From the IMG/VR virus record IMGVR_UViG_3300024346_000003: a stretch of DNA of 64,000 nucleotides. One strand, 5' to 3'. The notes beneath the pieces were generated by a model, which worked only from the letters and a program-made list of their open reading frames with translations, was not told the origin of the DNA and ran no database searches. The stretch is from a virus. Its lineage: Duplodnaviria > Caudoviricetes. Position numbers and translations under genes: made by a program. Position 1 is the stretch's first letter; each line of letters starts with the position of its first letter. Positions 6,190 to 64,000 of this stretch are shown here, piece after piece.

Positions 6190-7443
6190 TTAATTGCTTA
6201 GTGGTGCTTTAATTGTTGGGTGTGATTGGTAGTCTTTTAAGATAAATCCATCTAACTCGTAATTATCAATATATGTTTCTTTTTCATATTTGAAAAATAA
6301 TTTTGGTAGTGTATATGGTTCTCTTGTTCGTGTTGGTATATTCCATTGGTCAATTTCAGAATGCGATAATGTACTACTGTCTCCACCGTTATAAATTTGA
6401 TTAAACATTTCTTGATTAACCATCGCTCTTCGTTCATCTAAAGTTAACTCTCTACCAATCTGTTCCTTTGCTTGTTCAACATGATTCAAATACAAATGTG
6501 TATCACCCAAGTTACCAATCAATTCATCAGGAACCATATTGACTTCCTTAGCAATGATTTCTAATAACAAACCATAAGATGCAATATTGAATGGTAAACC
6601 TAAGAATGTATCTACTGAACGTTGATTCCACATTAAAGAGATTGCTCGTTTAGGAATGTTAAATGAGTTTAGTTTTTTATGACCTTCATAACTTTCTACA
6701 TAATCAATCTCCCACATTCCTCGTTTGCCTGTTTCATTTTGATTTTGTTGATACCATAGTTCAATACGTTCTTCCAAACTCAACACTCTTGTAAAAAACT
6801 GAAAATCTGTATGACAAGGGGGTAATACCATTTCATTTAATTCACCAACATTCCAAGCAGAAACTCTATTGCGTCTGGAGTCTGGGTCTGTTTTAAGTAA
6901 ATTGATTGCGTTTTGTATTTGGTCTGTTCCTTTAATACCGTAACCTCTTTCTTCAGTTTGAGGCTCATAACCCCAATTTCTCCATTGTTTACCATACACT
7001 GGACCTAATTCACCCCACTTGTTAGCAAACTCATCATTAGTTTTTATTTTATTAATAAATTCTTCTTGTGTTAATAATCTTGAAGTTGCATTATAAATAG
7101 GTCCTTCTACAATAACTATATCTTTATTAATTTCTAAATTAAGATTTATGTTTTGATTTTTGTTAATAAAATTTTTATACGCATCACCATCCCAAATGTG
7201 ACAATTATTATCAATAAGATATTTAATGTTTGTATCACCACGTAAAAACCACAACAATTCTGTTACAATTCCTTTGAAATACATCTTTTTTGATGTAATC
7301 AGTGGAAAACCATCTGACATCTTGTGTCTGATTTGCCTTCCGAATACAGATATCGTACCTGTTCCAGTACGGTCTTGCTTGGTTACTCCGTTATCTAGGA
7401 TATCTTGGAGTAGGTCTGTGTATTGTTTATCTAGTTTGTTCAT
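6190..7443 (-). CDS. thyA: thymidylate synthase with insertions
   Basis: DRTGTGT, ELLWFLRG, LGPVYGKQWR, catalytic LPPCH, QRSVDTFLGLPFNIASY, GDTHLY, YQSHPTIKAPLS. Confidence 0.97.
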   Translation of the reverse strand: MNKLDKQYTDLLQDILDNGVTKQDRTGTGTISVFGRQIRHKMSDGFPLITSKKMYFKGIVTELLWFLRGDTNIKYLIDNNCHIWDGDAYKNFINKNQNINLNLEINKDIVIVEGPIYNATSRLLTQEEFINKIKTNDEFANKWGELGPVYGKQWRNWGYEPQTEERGYGIKGTDQIQNAINLLKTDPDSRRNRVSAWNVGELNEMVLPPCHTDFQFFTRVLSLEERIELWYQQNQNETGKRGMWEIDYVESYEGHKKLNSFNIPKRAISLMWNQRSVDTFLGLPFNIASYGLLLEIIAKEVNMVPDELIGNLGDTHLYLNHVEQAKEQIGRELTLDERRAMVNQEMFNQIYNGGDSSTLSHSEIDQWNIPTRTREPYTLPKLFFKYEKETYIDNYELDGFILKDYQSHPTIKAPLSN

Positions 7444-7586
7444 TTTAAATATTTTGTTTTATAGTCTAGCACTATTAATATTGCTTCTCTTATTTTTTCA
7501 TCATGTGTTGATTCATGTAGTAATTTTAACGTCTTATCAAAATCATCTATAAGATATGTATCGTATTGTTTATCTAGGCTGTTCAT
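7440..7586 (-). CDS. 48-aa protein not in ORF track; paralog of the C-terminus of 63651-63932
   Basis: hand translation MNSLDKQYDTYLIDDFDKTLKLLHESTHDEKIREAILIVLDYKTKYLK; ATGA overlap with thyA start. Confidence 0.7.
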   Translation of the reverse strand: MNSLDKQYDTYLIDDFDKTLKLLHESTHDEKIREAILIVLDYKTKYLK

Positions 7587-8540: not shown

Positions 8541-11060
8541 ATGAATAGAGAGATTATACCAAAATTAAAAATCATTATCGGTGAAGCTGTTAAAGAAGCT
8601 CGATTGATGGATGATACACTAGTAAAGCCAGAACACATACTAATTTCAATAATTAATGACAATGATAATGCGTGTTCAGATACATTAAAAAGTCTAGGAC
8701 TTAATTTAGTATTACTTAATGATTGTTTAATTCTTGAAGTTAGAAATTCAAATCTAACACCTAGAATTGATAATAGCACTAAAGTAACCGTACCTTTTAG
8801 TAAAGAAAGTAAATTATTATTTAAAGCTGTTGATTTTGAATCTAAAAGTTTAGGTGATAACCACATAGACACAACACACATCATGATGGCTATGTTAAAT
8901 ACAAATAACAAATTAAATATTAGAAAATTATTAAATAGTACTGGGATTTATTATGATAAATTTATAAGCGCAGTTAAACAAATACGAGATATGTTGAATG
9001 AAGAAAATAATTCATCAGATGATGAAAGTGAATTTGATTATTCTAATAGTGAGAATGATAGAAAAGATAAAAAACCAAAAAGAAGTGCACCTAGTAAAAC
9101 ACCAGTTCTAGATAATTTCTGTACCGATATTACAAAATTAGTTGATGAAAATAAAATTGACCCAGTTGTTGGTAGAAATAAAGAAATTAAAAGAGTTACT
9201 CAGATTTTATCAAGGAGAAAGAAAAATAATCCAGTATTAATCGGTGAAGCTGGTGTTGGTAAAAGTAGTATTGTTGAGGGTATCGCATTATTAATTAAAA
9301 GTGGGTCAGTACCCAGAACATTAATGGGTAAAAAAATCTATTCATTAGATTTGGCATCAGTTGTTGCTGGTACTAAATACCGAGGTCAATTTGAAGAGCG
9401 AATTATAGCTATTTTAGATGAACTAAAAGTTAATACTGATATAATCTTATTCATTGACGAATTACACACCTTTATAGGTGCTGGAAATGCATCAGGTTCG
9501 CTAGATGCATCAAACATATTCAAACCAGCATTGGCTAGAGGTGAAATTCAAGTAATTGGTGCAACAACATTAGATGAATTTAGAGAGCACATCGAAAAAG
9601 ATAGTGCATTAACTAGAAGATTCCAACAAGTATTGGTCGAAGCAACTACCGTAGAAGAAACTAAAATTATCTTAAATAATATTAAAGATAAATATGAAAA
9701 ATACCATAAAGTAACTTATACACCTGAAGCTATTGACGAATGTGTTAAAATGGCTGATAGATATATTACCGATAGAGCTATGCCAGATAAAGCAATTGAT
9801 GTTTTAGATGAAGCTGGTGCAAGTACAAATATTGCACATGAACTTCCAGAAAATATTAAAAAACTAGAACTTAAAAAAGATGACATATTAAAAAAGAAAT
9901 TAGAGGTTGTCCAAAAACAAAAATACGAAGAAGCTGCTGAACTTAGAGATGAGGAAAGAAAGGTGAATGAAGATTTAGACAAAGCTAAAAAGAATTGGAT
10001 AGAATCTTTAGATAAAAAAAGAACAATAATTGATGTTAATTTAATTGCTGAAACAGTATCAACAATGACTGGAATTCCATTAAGTAAAATCTCCTCACAA
10101 GAGAATAAAAAACTTATGTCAATGGATAAGGATTTGATGGGTAAAGTAATTGGTCAAGATGATGCAGTACTTAAAGTGATTAAAGCTATCAAAAGAAATC
10201 GTTTAGGTATTAGAAATAGAAATAAACCAATCGGTTCATTTATTTTCTTAGGACCAACTGGTGTTGGTAAAACACATTTAAGTAAATTATTAACTGAAGA
10301 GATATTTGGTGATTCAGATGCATTAATTCGTATTGATATGAGTGAATACATGGAAAAACATTCAGTATCTAAATTAATTGGTTCACCTCCAGGATATGTT
10401 GGGTTTGAACAAGGTGGTCAATTAACTGAAAAAGTTAGAAGAAAACCATATTCAGTTATTTTATTTGATGAAATTGAAAAGGCACATGATGATGTATTCA
10501 ATATCTTACTACAATTACTAGATGAAGGTCAATTAACTGATAGTTTTGGTAGAAAAATAAACTTCAAAAATTGTCTAATAATACTTACATCAAATGTTGG
10601 TGCTAAAGAATTGACTAGCTTTGGTAAATCTATGGGGTTCCAAACTGATTCTGTTATTTCTAATGAAGAAGAAAGAACTCGTTCAATTATTGAAAAAGCA
10701 CTTAAAAAGAAATTCAAACCAGAATTCTTAAATAGACTTGATGAAATTATAGTCTTTAATAGCTTAAAAGAGGAAGATATTCATAAAATAATCTATAACG
10801 AACTTGATAAATTAAAAGAACGTGTATTAGAAATGGGTTATAATATTAAAATAAATAAATCAGCTATAGAATTTGTTGCTAAAAATGGGTATGATGAAGC
10901 TTATGGTGCCAGACCATTAAATAGAGCAATCCAAAGATACATTGAGGACCCAATTGCTGATGAAATTTTAAGTGGTAATTTCAAGGAAGGTGAAACTATA
11001 AACATAACCTTAGATAAAACCAAAAACGAAATAGTAATCAAAGGAGATAAAACTAAATAA
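8541..11060 (+). CDS. clpC: ClpC/ClpB-family AAA+ ATPase (ClpC-like with UVR middle domain)
   Basis: Clp N-domain, Walker A GEAGVGKS and GPTGVGKT, FIDELH, RRFQ, QKYEEAAELRDEE, RIDMSEYMEKHSVSKLIGSPPGYVG, YGARPLNRAIQ. Confidence 0.93.
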   Translation: MNREIIPKLKIIIGEAVKEARLMDDTLVKPEHILISIINDNDNACSDTLKSLGLNLVLLNDCLILEVRNSNLTPRIDNSTKVTVPFSKESKLLFKAVDFESKSLGDNHIDTTHIMMAMLNTNNKLNIRKLLNSTGIYYDKFISAVKQIRDMLNEENNSSDDESEFDYSNSENDRKDKKPKRSAPSKTPVLDNFCTDITKLVDENKIDPVVGRNKEIKRVTQILSRRKKNNPVLIGEAGVGKSSIVEGIALLIKSGSVPRTLMGKKIYSLDLASVVAGTKYRGQFEERIIAILDELKVNTDIILFIDELHTFIGAGNASGSLDASNIFKPALARGEIQVIGATTLDEFREHIEKDSALTRRFQQVLVEATTVEETKIILNNIKDKYEKYHKVTYTPEAIDECVKMADRYITDRAMPDKAIDVLDEAGASTNIAHELPENIKKLELKKDDILKKKLEVVQKQKYEEAAELRDEERKVNEDLDKAKKNWIESLDKKRTIIDVNLIAETVSTMTGIPLSKISSQENKKLMSMDKDLMGKVIGQDDAVLKVIKAIKRNRLGIRNRNKPIGSFIFLGPTGVGKTHLSKLLTEEIFGDSDALIRIDMSEYMEKHSVSKLIGSPPGYVGFEQGGQLTEKVRRKPYSVILFDEIEKAHDDVFNILLQLLDEGQLTDSFGRKINFKNCLIILTSNVGAKELTSFGKSMGFQTDSVISNEEERTRSIIEKALKKKFKPEFLNRLDEIIVFNSLKEEDIHKIIYNELDKLKERVLEMGYNIKINKSAIEFVAKNGYDEAYGARPLNRAIQRYIEDPIADEILSGNFKEGETINITLDKTKNEIVIKGDKTK

Positions 11061-11492: not shown

Positions 11493-12170
11493 TTTATTTT
11501 TAATACCCACTATATAATGGTGATTACTAATTTTATGACCAGAATTGATGTAACTTTGATACCCACCTGGCCCAGCATTATATTTAACTAGTGCATTTTC
11601 AGGTAAACCAGATTTCATATTTCTATTCATCATATAACCCCAAAACACTAAATTATTATTTTTATTTGATAACCATTTAACTGATTGTGAATATGTAGTA
11701 GGTTTAACTAAGGTTGAATCACCACTCAAATATCTAAATACTTTGATATCATTATCAGTAACTAATTTAGTCATTATTGCTAGACCAGATTTAGGTGATA
11801 TTTGAGCAATACCAATATGACCACCACTACCAACATTTACCACACCATTTTTATAATGCTTTGAACCAGACTCAATGATTATTTGACCGACAAATAATTT
11901 AAATCCTATCTGAGTGGTATCCAGATTATAAAATTCACAAACCTTTATAAATTGTGTTACAGTTTGCGAATCAATTTCTGGATTGTAATGACTAAATGCT
12001 TTATATGCAAAAGTATAATTAGGGTCAATTGTGATAATACTATCTTTTGATTCTTTAGTACTATCAAAATCATAACTTTTATTAGTTAAAATTGTTGGCT
12101 TACCATTAGGTATAATTAAACTTGTTGATACAAAAATCGCTAAAAATAATAGTTTATTTAAATTTTTCAT
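11475..12170 (-). CDS. secreted lytic transglycosylase (SLT-like)
   Basis: N-terminal signal/TM segment; IIIESG catalytic Glu, GIAQI, ALVKYNAGPG motifs. Confidence 0.75.
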   Translation of the reverse strand: MKNLNKLLFLAIFVSTSLIIPNGKPTILTNKSYDFDSTKESKDSIITIDPNYTFAYKAFSHYNPEIDSQTVTQFIKVCEFYNLDTTQIGFKLFVGQIIIESGSKHYKNGVVNVGSGGHIGIAQISPKSGLAIMTKLVTDNDIKVFRYLSGDSTLVKPTTYSQSVKWLSNKNNNLVFWGYMMNRNMKSGLPENALVKYNAGPGGYQSYINSGHKISNHHYIVGIKNKLSKIN

Positions 12171-62140: not shown

Positions 62141-62494
62141 TTATTTTGTTACAACTGTGATAGTTGAGAATTCTGAATCACCATCTTTAGATAAATAAAA
62201 ATATGATGTAAATTCATTCTCATAATAAATTATCCAATATGGGTCACTATCCGAATCAACATCTTTAGGAAATTCAATACTTTGGTCATCATCACCGAGT
62301 ATTCTTTTCAATTCTTCTCTAGCTTCATTATGTTTTGCATAATAAAAAGAATAATTATCAAAATCTTTTGTACCTATAACATACCATTGCATAACGGGTA
62401 CATTAGATTTTTTATTTTTCACAGTTATTATTCCTTGGGCATTTGCCGCTACTGATGTAATCATTAAGATTACTGTTAAAATTAAATTTTTCAT
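62141..62494 (-). CDS. secreted hypothetical protein
   Basis: signal peptide MKNLILTVILMITSVAANA-Q. Confidence 0.7.
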   Translation of the reverse strand: MKNLILTVILMITSVAANAQGIITVKNKKSNVPVMQWYVIGTKDFDNYSFYYAKHNEAREELKRILGDDDQSIEFPKDVDSDSDPYWIIYYENEFTSYFYLSKDGDSEFSTITVVTK

Positions 62495-62560: not shown

Positions 62561-62740
62561 TTAATATTTGGACCTGATGACACCTTCTTCAATCATAAAC
62601 AATTGTTTCCAAAGATACTGTGCTGTTTCGTTATCACCAGTTTCTTTTATTTTAGTTATTTCATTATCCATTTGTTTGAAATCTTCTTCGGTTTCACATT
62701 TGAATAATCTTTCCAATATTTCTTGTTGTTCTTTATTCAT
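62561..62740 (-). CDS. small MNKEQQE-family protein
   Basis: ATG overlaps stop of upstream gene; shared N-terminus. Confidence 0.6.
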   Translation of the reverse strand: MNKEQQEILERLFKCETEEDFKQMDNEITKIKETGDNETAQYLWKQLFMIEEGVIRSKY

Positions 62741-63161
62741 AACTCTCAATTGTTTTATCGTTGTATGTTAGTGTGATTAGTTTGGTTGGGATGTTTTTTT
62801 CATTTAATGTTTCAATCCAATTATCTTTTACATCATCTGAAATAGGAATTAACAATTTAGTTTTAGTTAAAATATAATGTCTCTCTTCCAAACTCAACTC
62901 TCGTTCTTCAATCTTTAATCCCCACCTTTCAGAGAATTCTGTATCGGTTTTACATTTGTTGATGAATTCTTCTTGGTTATATGTTCTATACCCATATGTA
63001 AAAGATGGATTTGTGAAATGTTCATAATATCCATCATACTCAACTAAACATCCATCTAAATACCCCTTAATTTTATCTAACCCTGTTTCAATTCCATTTA
63101 TAGTGTATTCAAGATATTTCTCATAAGCCTCATCCAATAATTCTTGTTGTTCTTTATTCAT
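62733..63161 (-). CDS. ThyA-insertion-like protein (paralog 2)
   Basis: NQEEFINKCKTDTEFSERWG and RELSLEER match ThyA insertion segments. Confidence 0.75.
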   Translation of the reverse strand: MNKEQQELLDEAYEKYLEYTINGIETGLDKIKGYLDGCLVEYDGYYEHFTNPSFTYGYRTYNQEEFINKCKTDTEFSERWGLKIEERELSLEERHYILTKTKLLIPISDDVKDNWIETLNEKNIPTKLITLTYNDKTIESYE

Positions 63162-63279
63162 AACTTTCTATTGTTTTGTTGTCCTTAACAATTCCATTAA
63201 CTTCTCATACTCGTCAGGTAATTCTTTTTTTATTACCTCTAATTGATAGCCGAGTGGTGTTGTATATTTTTTCTTTTTC

Positions 63280-63654
63280 TTATTCATAACTTTCAATTGT
63301 TTTATCGTTGTATGTTATTGTGATTAGTTTGGTTGGAATTTTATAATCATTGCAATTCCCTTCATCTCCTTCTCTACCCCCACCCATTAGCATATCCCAT
63401 TCAAACGAATCAACATATTTATAACCTAATTCACATCTCTCCTCCAAACTCAACTCTCGTTCTTCAATCTTTAGTCCCCACCTCTCAGAAAACTCATCAT
63501 CTGTTTTGATTTTGTTGATGAATTCTTCTTGAGTAAACGGTCTATATTGTAATGGGTCTGAATAATTAACAATACCTGGTGTTTTGCTAGGTTCATACTT
63601 TTTTAGATAATTTTTATAGGCCTCACCCACTAATTCTTGTTGTTCTTTATTCAT
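63280..63654 (-). CDS. ThyA-insertion-like protein (paralog 1)
   Basis: AYKNY, TQEEFINKIKTDDEFSERWG, RELSLEERCEL, IPTKLI match ThyA segments. Confidence 0.75.
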   Translation of the reverse strand: MNKEQQELVGEAYKNYLKKYEPSKTPGIVNYSDPLQYRPFTQEEFINKIKTDDEFSERWGLKIEERELSLEERCELGYKYVDSFEWDMLMGGGREGDEGNCNDYKIPTKLITITYNDKTIESYE

Positions 63655-63932
63655 CTTTGTTTTTTATTATCTAAGTATTCTGTTTTATATCTTTGTATTA
63701 ATAATATGGATTCTCTTATTTTTACATCGTGAGTAGATTCGTGCAACATTTTTAATGTCTTATCAAACTCATCCATTGTCGGGTCTAGTTCTTCGGTCCA
63801 ACATTTTTTATCAGAATCGAACGTCATTATTTTATAGTTTGAAAAATCCCAATCTTTTTTATATTGTTCTGCGAACTCTGGGTCTTTTAGTTTTTTGATT
63901 AAATCACAAAAATTATTAACTTCTTTATTCAT
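63651..63932 (-). CDS. hypothetical protein; C-terminus paralogous to 7440-7586
   Basis: DEFDKTLKMLHESTHDVKIRESIL vs DDFDKTLKLLHESTHDEKIREAIL. Confidence 0.75.
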   Translation of the reverse strand: MNKEVNNFCDLIKKLKDPEFAEQYKKDWDFSNYKIMTFDSDKKCWTEELDPTMDEFDKTLKMLHESTHDVKIRESILLIQRYKTEYLDNKKQR

Positions 63933-64000
63933 AATCTTATGTTTTTGGTGCAAAAAAATATTCTATCACTGTTTCATCACTTGTATAATCATGTAATTCA

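Follow-up and report, generated by a model that had tools for sequence, protein, structure and literature searches.

Non-catalytic mini-proteins descended from thymidylate synthase, and variable cassettes common to them and ThyA, in a freshwater phage and its relatives

In pilE/pilS and vlsE/vls, diverse partial copies lie beside an expressed gene and act as silent donors for segmental gene conversion at conserved flanks, and the gp38 adhesins of T-even-like phages are mosaics of glycine-rich motifs. Here, we analyze a 64,000-nucleotide (nt) stretch of viral DNA (IMG/VR record IMGVR_UViG_3300024346_000003, hereafter the window), in which two small open reading frames (ORFs), o124 and o142, are related to the thymidylate synthase (TS) gene thyA of the same phage. 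Exchange of variable segments between conserved flanks has also been described for the gp38 adhesins, in which hypervariable segments stand between conserved motifs (PMC12032242), for polymorphic toxins (Rhs/CdiA), in which a main gene lies beside shorter orphan modules and exchanges its tip by recombination in a short conserved block (PMC3482391), and for hsdS of Type I restriction-modification systems, in which a target-recognition domain moves between two gene positions via conserved flanking repeats (PMC3077401). Genes left in pieces by homing endonucleases are known from nrdA/mobE of phage Aeh1 (PMC2988022). The shuffling of cassettes via conserved flanks is thus a known principle; enzyme-derived mini-proteins that trade internal modules with the enzyme are a new variant of it.

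The phage is a freshwater one with a genome of roughly 300 kb, and the contig carrying the window is 303,820 bp long. Metagenome runs containing the stretch come from lake, freshwater and marine samples. We find that o124 and o142 belong to a large, previously undescribed family of catalytically dead mini-ThyA proteins of aquatic phages, built of constant blocks (C1, C2, C3) and variable cassettes (V1, V2).

Descent of o124 and o142 from ThyA

The features on which the comparison rests are the following (positions in the window).

6190-7443, minus strand: thyA, 417 amino acids (aa), catalytic motifs present, PF00303 at E 2.7e-89
7012-7188, minus strand: thyA insert 1, residues 86-144, a small domain with a hypervariable middle
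6643-6789, minus strand: thyA V2 module, residues 219-267
6322-6450, minus strand: thyA V3 module, residues 332-374
63280-63654, minus strand: o124, ThyA-derived mini-protein, ATGA overlap with o100
63607-63654, 63535-63606, 63436-63534, 63340-63435, 63283-63339 and 63280-63282, minus strand: C1, V1, C2, V2, C3 and stop of o124
62733-63161, minus strand: o142, second mini-protein
63114-63161, 62979-63113, 62880-62978, 62793-62879 and 62736-62792, minus strand: C1, V1, C2, V2 and C3 of o142
63651-63932, minus strand: o100, 93 aa from the ATG at 63932 or 100 aa from a TTG at 63953 (the frame is open there too), upstream of the array
7440-7586, minus strand: o48, a chimera of 48 aa, ATGA overlap with thyA

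By composition-corrected BLASTP, o124 matches ThyA residues 86-144 with 44% identity (E 1e-10) and o142 matches residues 115-144 with 50% identity (E 2e-7); the two mini-proteins are 47% identical to each other (E 1e-23). A second segment, ThyA 219-280, is collinear with the first; at LSLEER it contains a 19-nt match with 89-95% identity. This segment is weak alone (E 0.2-0.7 in BLASTP); tblastn within the window aligned residues 66-123 of o124 with the ThyA codons at 6789-6604 (E 1e-3). An initial annotation of the window, made from the sequence, had proposed that the small ORFs join two ThyA segments in order, and this holds, including under correction for AT-rich composition. The sequence pairs that it quoted were swapped, the strings offered for ThyA belonging to the small ORF. 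A chance origin of the similarity in AT-rich, low-complexity sequence would draw on the weakness of the second segment alone, but this reading is already refuted by the corrected E values, the collinear matches, the identity at the nucleotide level, the thousands of relatives that have the same plan, and the cassettes held in common with ThyA; its remaining probability is negligible.

o124 and o142 descend from ThyA and keep part of its fold, but they are not thymidylate synthases. The catalytic cysteine motif PPCH is absent and the segment equivalent to ThyA 145-212 is deleted; GDTHLY is absent as well, and the Arg/Ser of QRS that bind deoxyuridine monophosphate (dUMP) and the C-terminal folate part are missing. 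NQRSVD has become NDKTIE, with a stop four codons on, and neither ORF matches PF00303 or any other Pfam family at E <= 1. The ThyA strands flanking insert 2 are kept in polar form (FQFFTR to LKIEER, AISLMWNQRSVDTF to LITITYNDKTIESY). The annotated loss of the catalytic core is therefore correct for PPCH and GDTHLY and not for the QRSVD strand, which is present in the degenerate form LITITYNDKTIESY. Similarly, the ORFs had been described as built only from insertion segments; both inserts are there, and so are a remnant of the ThyA N-terminal helix and two beta-strands.

Residues 6-219 of the window ThyA align without a break with the long-form TS of E. faecalis and L. casei, and insert 1 is therefore their known small domain, not the peculiarity of this phage for which it had been taken. 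Against solved TS structures, the alignment breaks only at 219-268 (V2) and 333-375 (V3). Judged by ThyA, the closest relatives in culture are Immutovirus phages of Flavobacterium (58% identity), which have the same three inserts. The proposal that the inserts form a separable subdomain that was excised and amplified stands as regards a compact domain, a passage from ThyA to small gene and amplification. It does not stand as regards recent excision from the phage's own thyA: identity to the latter is 80% over 62 nt, compared to 90% in the same block to thyA of Flavobacterium phage immuto.

A mini-ThyA family and its cassettes

When 1.84 billion cluster representatives were searched exhaustively with a profile, 675 clusters (50% identity) matched at E <= 1e-3, 450 of them at E <= 1e-10; the best 150 of the 675 are all 88-205 aa long. 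A search limited to proteins of similar length gave 5,256 small proteins (90% clusters) at E <= 0.01, none with a Pfam domain. PHROGs has no family for the mini-proteins, a tblastn search of 50,697 GenBank phage records with o124 gave thyA genes only and no free-standing copy, and our searches of full-text literature turned up no description of a mini-ThyA family. Among eight relatives with terminal extensions or long cassettes, seven are unmatched in Pfam and PHROGs, the exception being P0268, which carries ThyA 1-86.

The common plan is C1-V1-C2-V2-C3, in which C1 is MNKEQQELLDEAYKNY, the C2 consensus is TQEEFINKCKTDxEFSEKWGLKIEERELSLEER and C3 is NIPTKLITITYNDKTIESYE followed by the stop. 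The constant blocks are nearly invariant, in contrast to V1 (10-66 aa) and V2 (18-68 aa), which are unrelated between types. A few members (P0061/65/108) have ThyA-type blocks (MNNLDKQYTDLL.., WGFQVYTRELS.., IPTRAISLTYNNQTIEIYE), and some are chimeras of ThyA residues 1-92 with a small-type C2-V2-C3. Because insert 1 is ancestral and such intermediates with ThyA-type blocks exist, the direction of change was from ThyA to mini-protein. Three metagenomic members (P0241, P0254 and P0036) have tandem V2 modules (..PTKLITVT-RELSLEER..), mirroring ThyA V2 + V3.

Several observations concern the small genes as coding sequences. The ratio of nonsynonymous to synonymous divergence (dN/dS) within cassette types is 0.13-0.21, and a DNA-level check of 84 loci placed 145 of 147 C2 blocks in an intact ORF (>=95 aa), as it did 135 of 147 C3 blocks. 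Residues that are buried in ThyA (FQVYTR, AISLMWNQRSVDTF) have become amphipathic polar strands (LKIEER, LITITYNDKTIESY), a recoding that fits a free-standing protein. Decay of the ORFs had been named as a point to check, and the copies proved mostly intact and under purifying selection. Contigs from RNA libraries cover V1 of o142 and V2 of o124, which as a sign of expression is suggestive only.

The AlphaFold2 (AF2) model of o124, built with 70 relatives, has a predicted local distance difference test score (pLDDT) of 87.8 and a predicted template modeling score (pTM) of 0.74, with disorder only in V1. In the ESM Atlas, the two models closest to it in shape are viral TS (template modeling score, TM, 0.50 and 0.49; 99-107 of 124 residues aligned), compared to TM 0.37 for the next unrelated row, and the secondary-structure elements of the mini-protein map one-to-one onto the ThyA model. 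Foldseek with the o124 model against PDB gave no match below E 0.29, and VIA-align against 48,161 chains gave a best Z of 3.7, to three-helix fragments only, with no solved analogue of the whole domain. These models support the view, already put forward in the initial annotation, that the retained ThyA pieces behave as one separable domain. A predicted complex of ThyA with o124 scored 0.01, which is evidence neither for nor against an interaction.

The cassettes are combined freely. The 166 distinct proteins that were typed show 141 combinations of 67 V1 types with 63 V2 types. Of 477 pairs with the same V1, only 40 (8%) have the same V2 too, and 24 quartets show all four combinations, from which we conclude that recombination inside C2 is rampant. 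Consistent with this, metagenome contigs that map to the window join its constant blocks with different letters between them, and metagenome depth over C2a is 10-30x the depth over the V regions.

The ThyA genes of the clade are themselves hypervariable, at V1, V1b, V2 and often V3, the last of which starts and ends like V2 (RELSLEER ... NIPTK) and is missing from some alleles (for example, loci L003-L005; related loci are numbered with L). An all-vs-all BLAST of extracted cassettes gave 77 pairs between ThyA V1 and small-gene V1, 81 between ThyA V2 and small-gene V2, 56 between ThyA V3 and small-gene V2, and 200 between ThyA V2 and V3, and no pair between V1 and V2. Cassette identity between ThyA and the small genes reaches 100% at the amino acid level, and 14 of 103 V1 types and 21 of 137 V2/V3 types are present in both gene classes. 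For example, the V1 of o142 is a cassette type of ThyA in L003/L004. In L015, a 125-nt tract of thyA is 97.6% identical to a small gene over exactly RELSL..V2..NIPT, with unrelated flanks, and the same tract pattern is seen between L015 thyA and its own neighboring small gene, within one genome. Such sharing of a cassette between thyA and a neighboring small gene was found in 1 of 31 loci, and no cassette is common to two members of a single array. The RELSLEER...NIPTK module occurs in none of ~5,500 other ORFs of 86 loci, and in the window only in thyA and the small ORFs, which rules it out as a general in-frame mobile element of the RPE or MITE kind.

The edges of the cassettes are conserved in codon choice. 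At the left edge of V2, E-L-S is written GAG/TTG/AGT in 90-92% of small genes and 71-73% of thyA genes, against background frequencies of 21%, 17% and 27%; at the right edge, Thr is ACC in 86% and 63%, respectively, against 15%. In the FINK motif that flanks V1 on the right, F-I-N is TTC/ATC/AAC in 85-95% of small genes, against 26-31%. Synonymous sites elsewhere in the same genes are far more diverged. Rare codons fixed exactly at the points of exchange fit an exchange that depends on homology. The proportion of synonymous differences (pS) is likewise lower in the constant blocks (0.27-0.52) than in the ThyA core (0.62-0.69), which is suggestive only, as amino acid composition differs between these regions.

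Arrays, split thyA genes and neighboring genes

Related phages bear out the co-occurrence that the initial annotation had asked about, with thousands of relatives and same-strand arrays often just upstream of thyA. The small genes of 84 related loci form same-strand arrays of 1-8 (8 in L026), and thyA lies 0.1-2.5 kb downstream of the array in at least 45 of these loci. The distance between array and thyA in complete jumbo genomes is 1.7 kb (G005), 8 kb (G004) and 30 kb (G002), and in the window it is 55 kb.

The gene order in the window is o100 - o124 - o39 - o142 - o59 - o117. It is syntenic with L013 (o48-like gene, small gene, ThyA, o117-like gene), minus thyA, and what had been called a duplicated thyA-like locus is better read as an ordinary small-gene array locus. 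In L013 and L052, relatives of o100 immediately precede small genes. The suggested paralogy of o100 with the 48-aa gene before thyA proved sound: the C-terminal 35 aa of o100 are 71% identical to o48 (E 6e-17; 78% over 105 nt), and both genes have the ATGA overlap. The first 24 nt of o48 match the first 24 nt of thyA at 22 positions, and the remainder follows the 3' part of o100 with 78% identity. As a chimera of the thyA start and o100, o48 indicates that thyA was relocated or replaced via recombination at its 5' end, which seems to be a recombination junction. In L006, too, the gene that precedes thyA (11603-11779) begins MNKLDKDY.

Homologues of an I-TevI-like GIY-YIG endonuclease are found in 30 of the 84 loci, abutting or inside thyA. 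Free-standing I-TevI-like genes (GIY-YIG, I-TevI zinc finger and NUMOD3) either follow thyA directly or overlap its start. Other loci have thyA divided among separate ORFs, the break lying in V1, at V1b or immediately ahead of PPCH (MVLPPCH), and an endonuclease ORF, GIY-YIG or other, often intervenes.

L003:12219-12953, I-TevI-like gene
L048:5013-5747, I-TevI-like gene
L038:2007-2747, I-TevI-like gene
L060:7021-7854, I-TevI-like gene
L015:2376-3116, I-TevI-like gene
L031:1151-2011, I-TevI-like gene
L071:7059-7778, I-TevI-like gene
L014:1997-4248, split thyA
L057:659-2858, split thyA
L076:7292-9385, split thyA
L024:6675-8814, split thyA (also L037, L042 and L085)

L003 and L004 have identical flanks and differ in endonuclease presence, ThyA cassettes and the 3' part, a pattern as expected for homing with co-conversion; the closely related L003, L004 and L005 differ in ThyA cassettes. 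Where thyA is split, the N-terminal fragments close with a tag that recurs (..DEKLYEDYLKK..) and the C-terminal fragments begin, whatever the split position, with ..HEDGTPF[ST]KEEFLxKLKTDKEFN..FG, a second copy of C2a. These may be reassembly tags carried by a mobile element. Recombination between the two C2a copies would yield the 145-212 deletion. The stop of the family lies one codon before the T4 td intron position, and the unspliced T4 frame ends there (..QRSVDVFLG-stop). o124 and o142 are not a gene in pieces: both carry the same parts without the core, and the fragments in L014, L057 and L076 look different. We infer that the family has its source in a rearranged piece of a thyA gene disrupted by an endonuclease, and that adaptation came later. 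In L034/L035:8156-10042, a thyA ORF of 628 aa has an in-frame insertion of ~230 aa near window ThyA residues 173-194, which may represent an intein or else an endonuclease domain inserted in frame.

Further features accompany the array in the window.

63168-63287, minus strand: 39-aa filler ORF (o39, MNKKKKKY...), between two junction-repeat copies
62561-62740, minus strand: 59-aa ORF (o59), starts MNKEQQEILERLF; only the junction and start module in common with the mini-proteins
63276-63294, minus strand: junction repeat copy 1, GAAAGTTATGAATAA
63150-63168, minus strand: junction repeat copy 2 (exact), precedes o142
62729-62747, minus strand: junction repeat copy 3, o142 stop and start of the next ORF

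The repeat GAAAGTTATGAATAA encodes ..ESYE-stop, with the ATG AAT AAA of the next gene one frame over, and has 4 matches in the window compared to 0.3 expected by chance. It looks like a module for whole-gene shuffling and can be likened to the promoter-early stem-loop cassettes of T4-type phages. The ESYE-stop junction is overlapped by ATGAATAAAGAACAACAAGA, and it is also present in L024 (5811-6008, 6395-6682) and L006 (10386-10676). Unrelated small ORFs of the arrays have the junction too, ending in ESYE or ESHE and starting with MNKEQ.

Directly downstream of the array, o117 (62141-62494, minus strand) encodes 117 aa with a signal-peptide-like N-terminus (MKNLILTVILMITSVAANAQ). Its relatives follow thyA or arrays in L013, L042, L052 and L066, and it has no match in Pfam or PHROGs; nor do o124, o142, o100, o48 and the 39-aa and 59-aa ORFs. 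A weak match of o100 to CdiI_N (E 0.012) missed the cut-off and was disregarded. About 1 kb from the thyA cluster, an 839-aa ORF (8541-11060, plus strand) is, by its Walker motifs, a ClpB/ClpA-like AAA+ chaperone. A scan for promoters and terminators found sites no commoner than by chance.

Possible roles and comparison with known systems

We favor, with confidence that is evenly balanced, an explanation in which long-form TS gave rise to a family of mini-ThyA scaffolds that trade cassettes with ThyA, the arrays acting as a reservoir and the proteins as display or decoy. A long-form phage TS would have lost residues ~13-85 and ~145-212 and everything past the QRSVD strand, and the remainder would fold as one small alpha/beta domain, a constant scaffold of C1, C2 and C3 with two hypervariable cassettes. 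V1 corresponds to the variable middle of the ThyA small domain and V2 to a beta-hairpin insert, and the same cassettes sit in ThyA at V1, V2 and a third site, V3. Homologous recombination (gene conversion) would pass cassettes among the mini-genes and thyA, acting in very short boundary blocks conserved at the nucleotide level. Tandem arrays usually stand just upstream of thyA, where common homing endonucleases are expected to break DNA often; in the phage of the window the array would have become separated from thyA. The mini-proteins would be made as non-catalytic scaffolds that display the variable surface modules of ThyA and may act as competitor or decoy for whatever binds these modules, and the arrays may be a reservoir for replacing thyA inserts. 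This double role, as display scaffold and cassette reservoir, is our best guess because evidence at the protein level (selection, intact ORFs, fold) is joined by cassette exchange with conserved boundaries.

Several points weigh against this explanation. The free combination of V1 and V2 speaks against a single joint binding surface, and the AF2 model of the 417-aa ThyA has a pLDDT of only 66. The dN/dS pairs are non-independent and were taken at >=65% amino acid identity, which biases dN downward. Broken copies are under-sampled in protein databases, for which gene callers give open frames only. RNA-library contigs can stem from DNA. The codon statistics take related sequences as independent, and their binomial P values are overstated.

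Alternatively, the small genes may matter as DNA, as donor cassettes that replace ThyA inserts by gene conversion (for example, following endonuclease breaks) in the manner of pilS/vls or of orphan toxin modules, with the proteins incidental. The position of the arrays, on the same strand just upstream of thyA in at least 45 of the 84 loci, would suit this role, as would the conserved flanks and identical variable tracts in thyA and small genes, which are the mark of silent cassettes. Discordant flanks around identical cassettes (including within L015), boundaries conserved at the nucleotide level in both gene classes, the absence of repeated cassettes within one array, the differing ThyA cassettes of L003/L004/L005 and the endonuclease genes adjoining thyA point the same way. 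Silent donors, however, are without start or promoter, and here each copy is furnished with an ATG, which often overlaps the stop before it and is translationally coupled, and with its own stop; 92-98% of the copies are intact. The scaffold blocks have diverged from ThyA to a conserved polar form, which has shortened the homology arms to ~12-24 nt, the opposite of a dedicated donor. In addition, a cassette is common to thyA and its neighbor in that single locus only, the window array is 55 kb from thyA, and the small genes stop before the I-TevI-type cleavage region, so that a break there could not be bridged by them. We therefore consider a role purely as DNA unlikely, as we do, a shade more firmly, a second reading in which the small genes are selfish or near-neutral debris of endonuclease-driven thyA fragmentation, regenerated and spread by recombination. 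The splitting of thyA at several positions with endonuclease genes between the pieces, the C2a duplicate on C-terminal fragments, whose recombination would give exactly the 145-212 deletion, the family stop next to the T4 td intron position, and the existence of chimeras and orphan C3 remnants all agree with such debris. They may account for the origin of the family, but not for its maintenance, given a uniform architecture over 675 clusters, purifying selection on cassettes and scaffold, coherent polar recoding of former core residues, a confident compact monomer model and very few broken copies.

The mini-proteins could instead bind ThyA, as a dominant-negative or regulatory subunit acting through the dimer-interface hairpin or by helping split ThyA to assemble. 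Of the ThyA sheet that makes up the TS dimer interface, beta-strands iii and iv survive in the mini-proteins, interface peptides reportedly inhibit human TS, and in most loci the small genes are co-located and probably co-transcribed with thyA. Yet the strand residues are recoded to polar T/E/K, and arrays also stand beside unsplit thyA and in records where no thyA was found, which makes this role decidedly improbable. A further reading, about as doubtful as debris, is that arrays and thyA together serve templated diversification of an essential enzyme's surface. Endonuclease breaks or ordinary recombination would drive segmental conversion at the boundary motifs, and more than 100 cassette types would be re-assorted among V1, V2 and V3 of ThyA and the expressed mini-scaffolds, which would allow escape from a host immune sensor or inhibitor with the mini-proteins as decoys offering alternative epitopes. 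If diversification is the correct reading, this would be antigenic variation in a bacterial virus, centered on a metabolic enzyme.

If the description given here is right, a housekeeping enzyme of large aquatic phages carries 3-4 hypervariable surface modules under purifying selection, and it gave rise to thousands of non-catalytic mini-copies that trade modules with it. This would be a new case of modular protein evolution, from enzyme fragment to free-standing scaffold, and of natural cassette exchange via homology arms of only 12-24 nt, and it would point to a partner of phage ThyA, possibly in host defense. The family is abundant in lake and brackish-water metagenomes, and a sizeable part of viral "dark matter" can now be named and tested. 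The related loci also supply many natural split thyA genes with recurring tags, for studying how an endonuclease-split enzyme is reassembled.

Among known proteins, the long-form TS of L. casei and E. faecalis (PDB 1lca, 3uwl) has a small domain of ~50 residues that aligns with phage insert 1, and hence with C1b-V1-C2a of the mini-proteins, whose model superposes best on viral TS models. Unlike long-form TS, the mini-proteins are without the catalytic cysteine, two thirds of the fold and both the dUMP and the folate site, and no solved TS structure contains anything equivalent to V2 or V3. Phage T4, with td exon 1, its group I intron and I-TevI, offers a parallel in that GIY-YIG endonucleases concentrate at thyA here too and the stop is at a near-equivalent position. 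In contrast to T4, the endonucleases are free-standing or lie between split ORFs, no intron has been shown at these loci, and the mini-genes have two internal deletions and are independent multi-copy genes. The splitting of thyA by endonuclease genes in many related loci resembles Aeh1 nrdA/mobE, but the mini-proteins are not complementary halves and do not restore the core together. The copies differ from those of pilS and vls in having starts and stops, in being intact and in their adaptation at the protein level. The alternation of constant and hypervariable segments, shuffled by recombination in the constant blocks, is like that of gp38, which is by contrast a receptor-binding protein under obvious selection, with neither arrays of mini-copies nor exchange with an enzyme described. 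The movement of the RELSLEER...NIPTK module between ThyA V2 and V3 (200 V2-V3 pairs) parallels that of target-recognition domains in hsdS, a different protein; the ThyA modules have no known recognition function. Finally, the orphan cassettes of polymorphic toxins usually lack a start and swap a C-terminal tip, whereas the small genes described here are complete ORFs with two internal cassettes, and their main gene encodes a metabolic enzyme.

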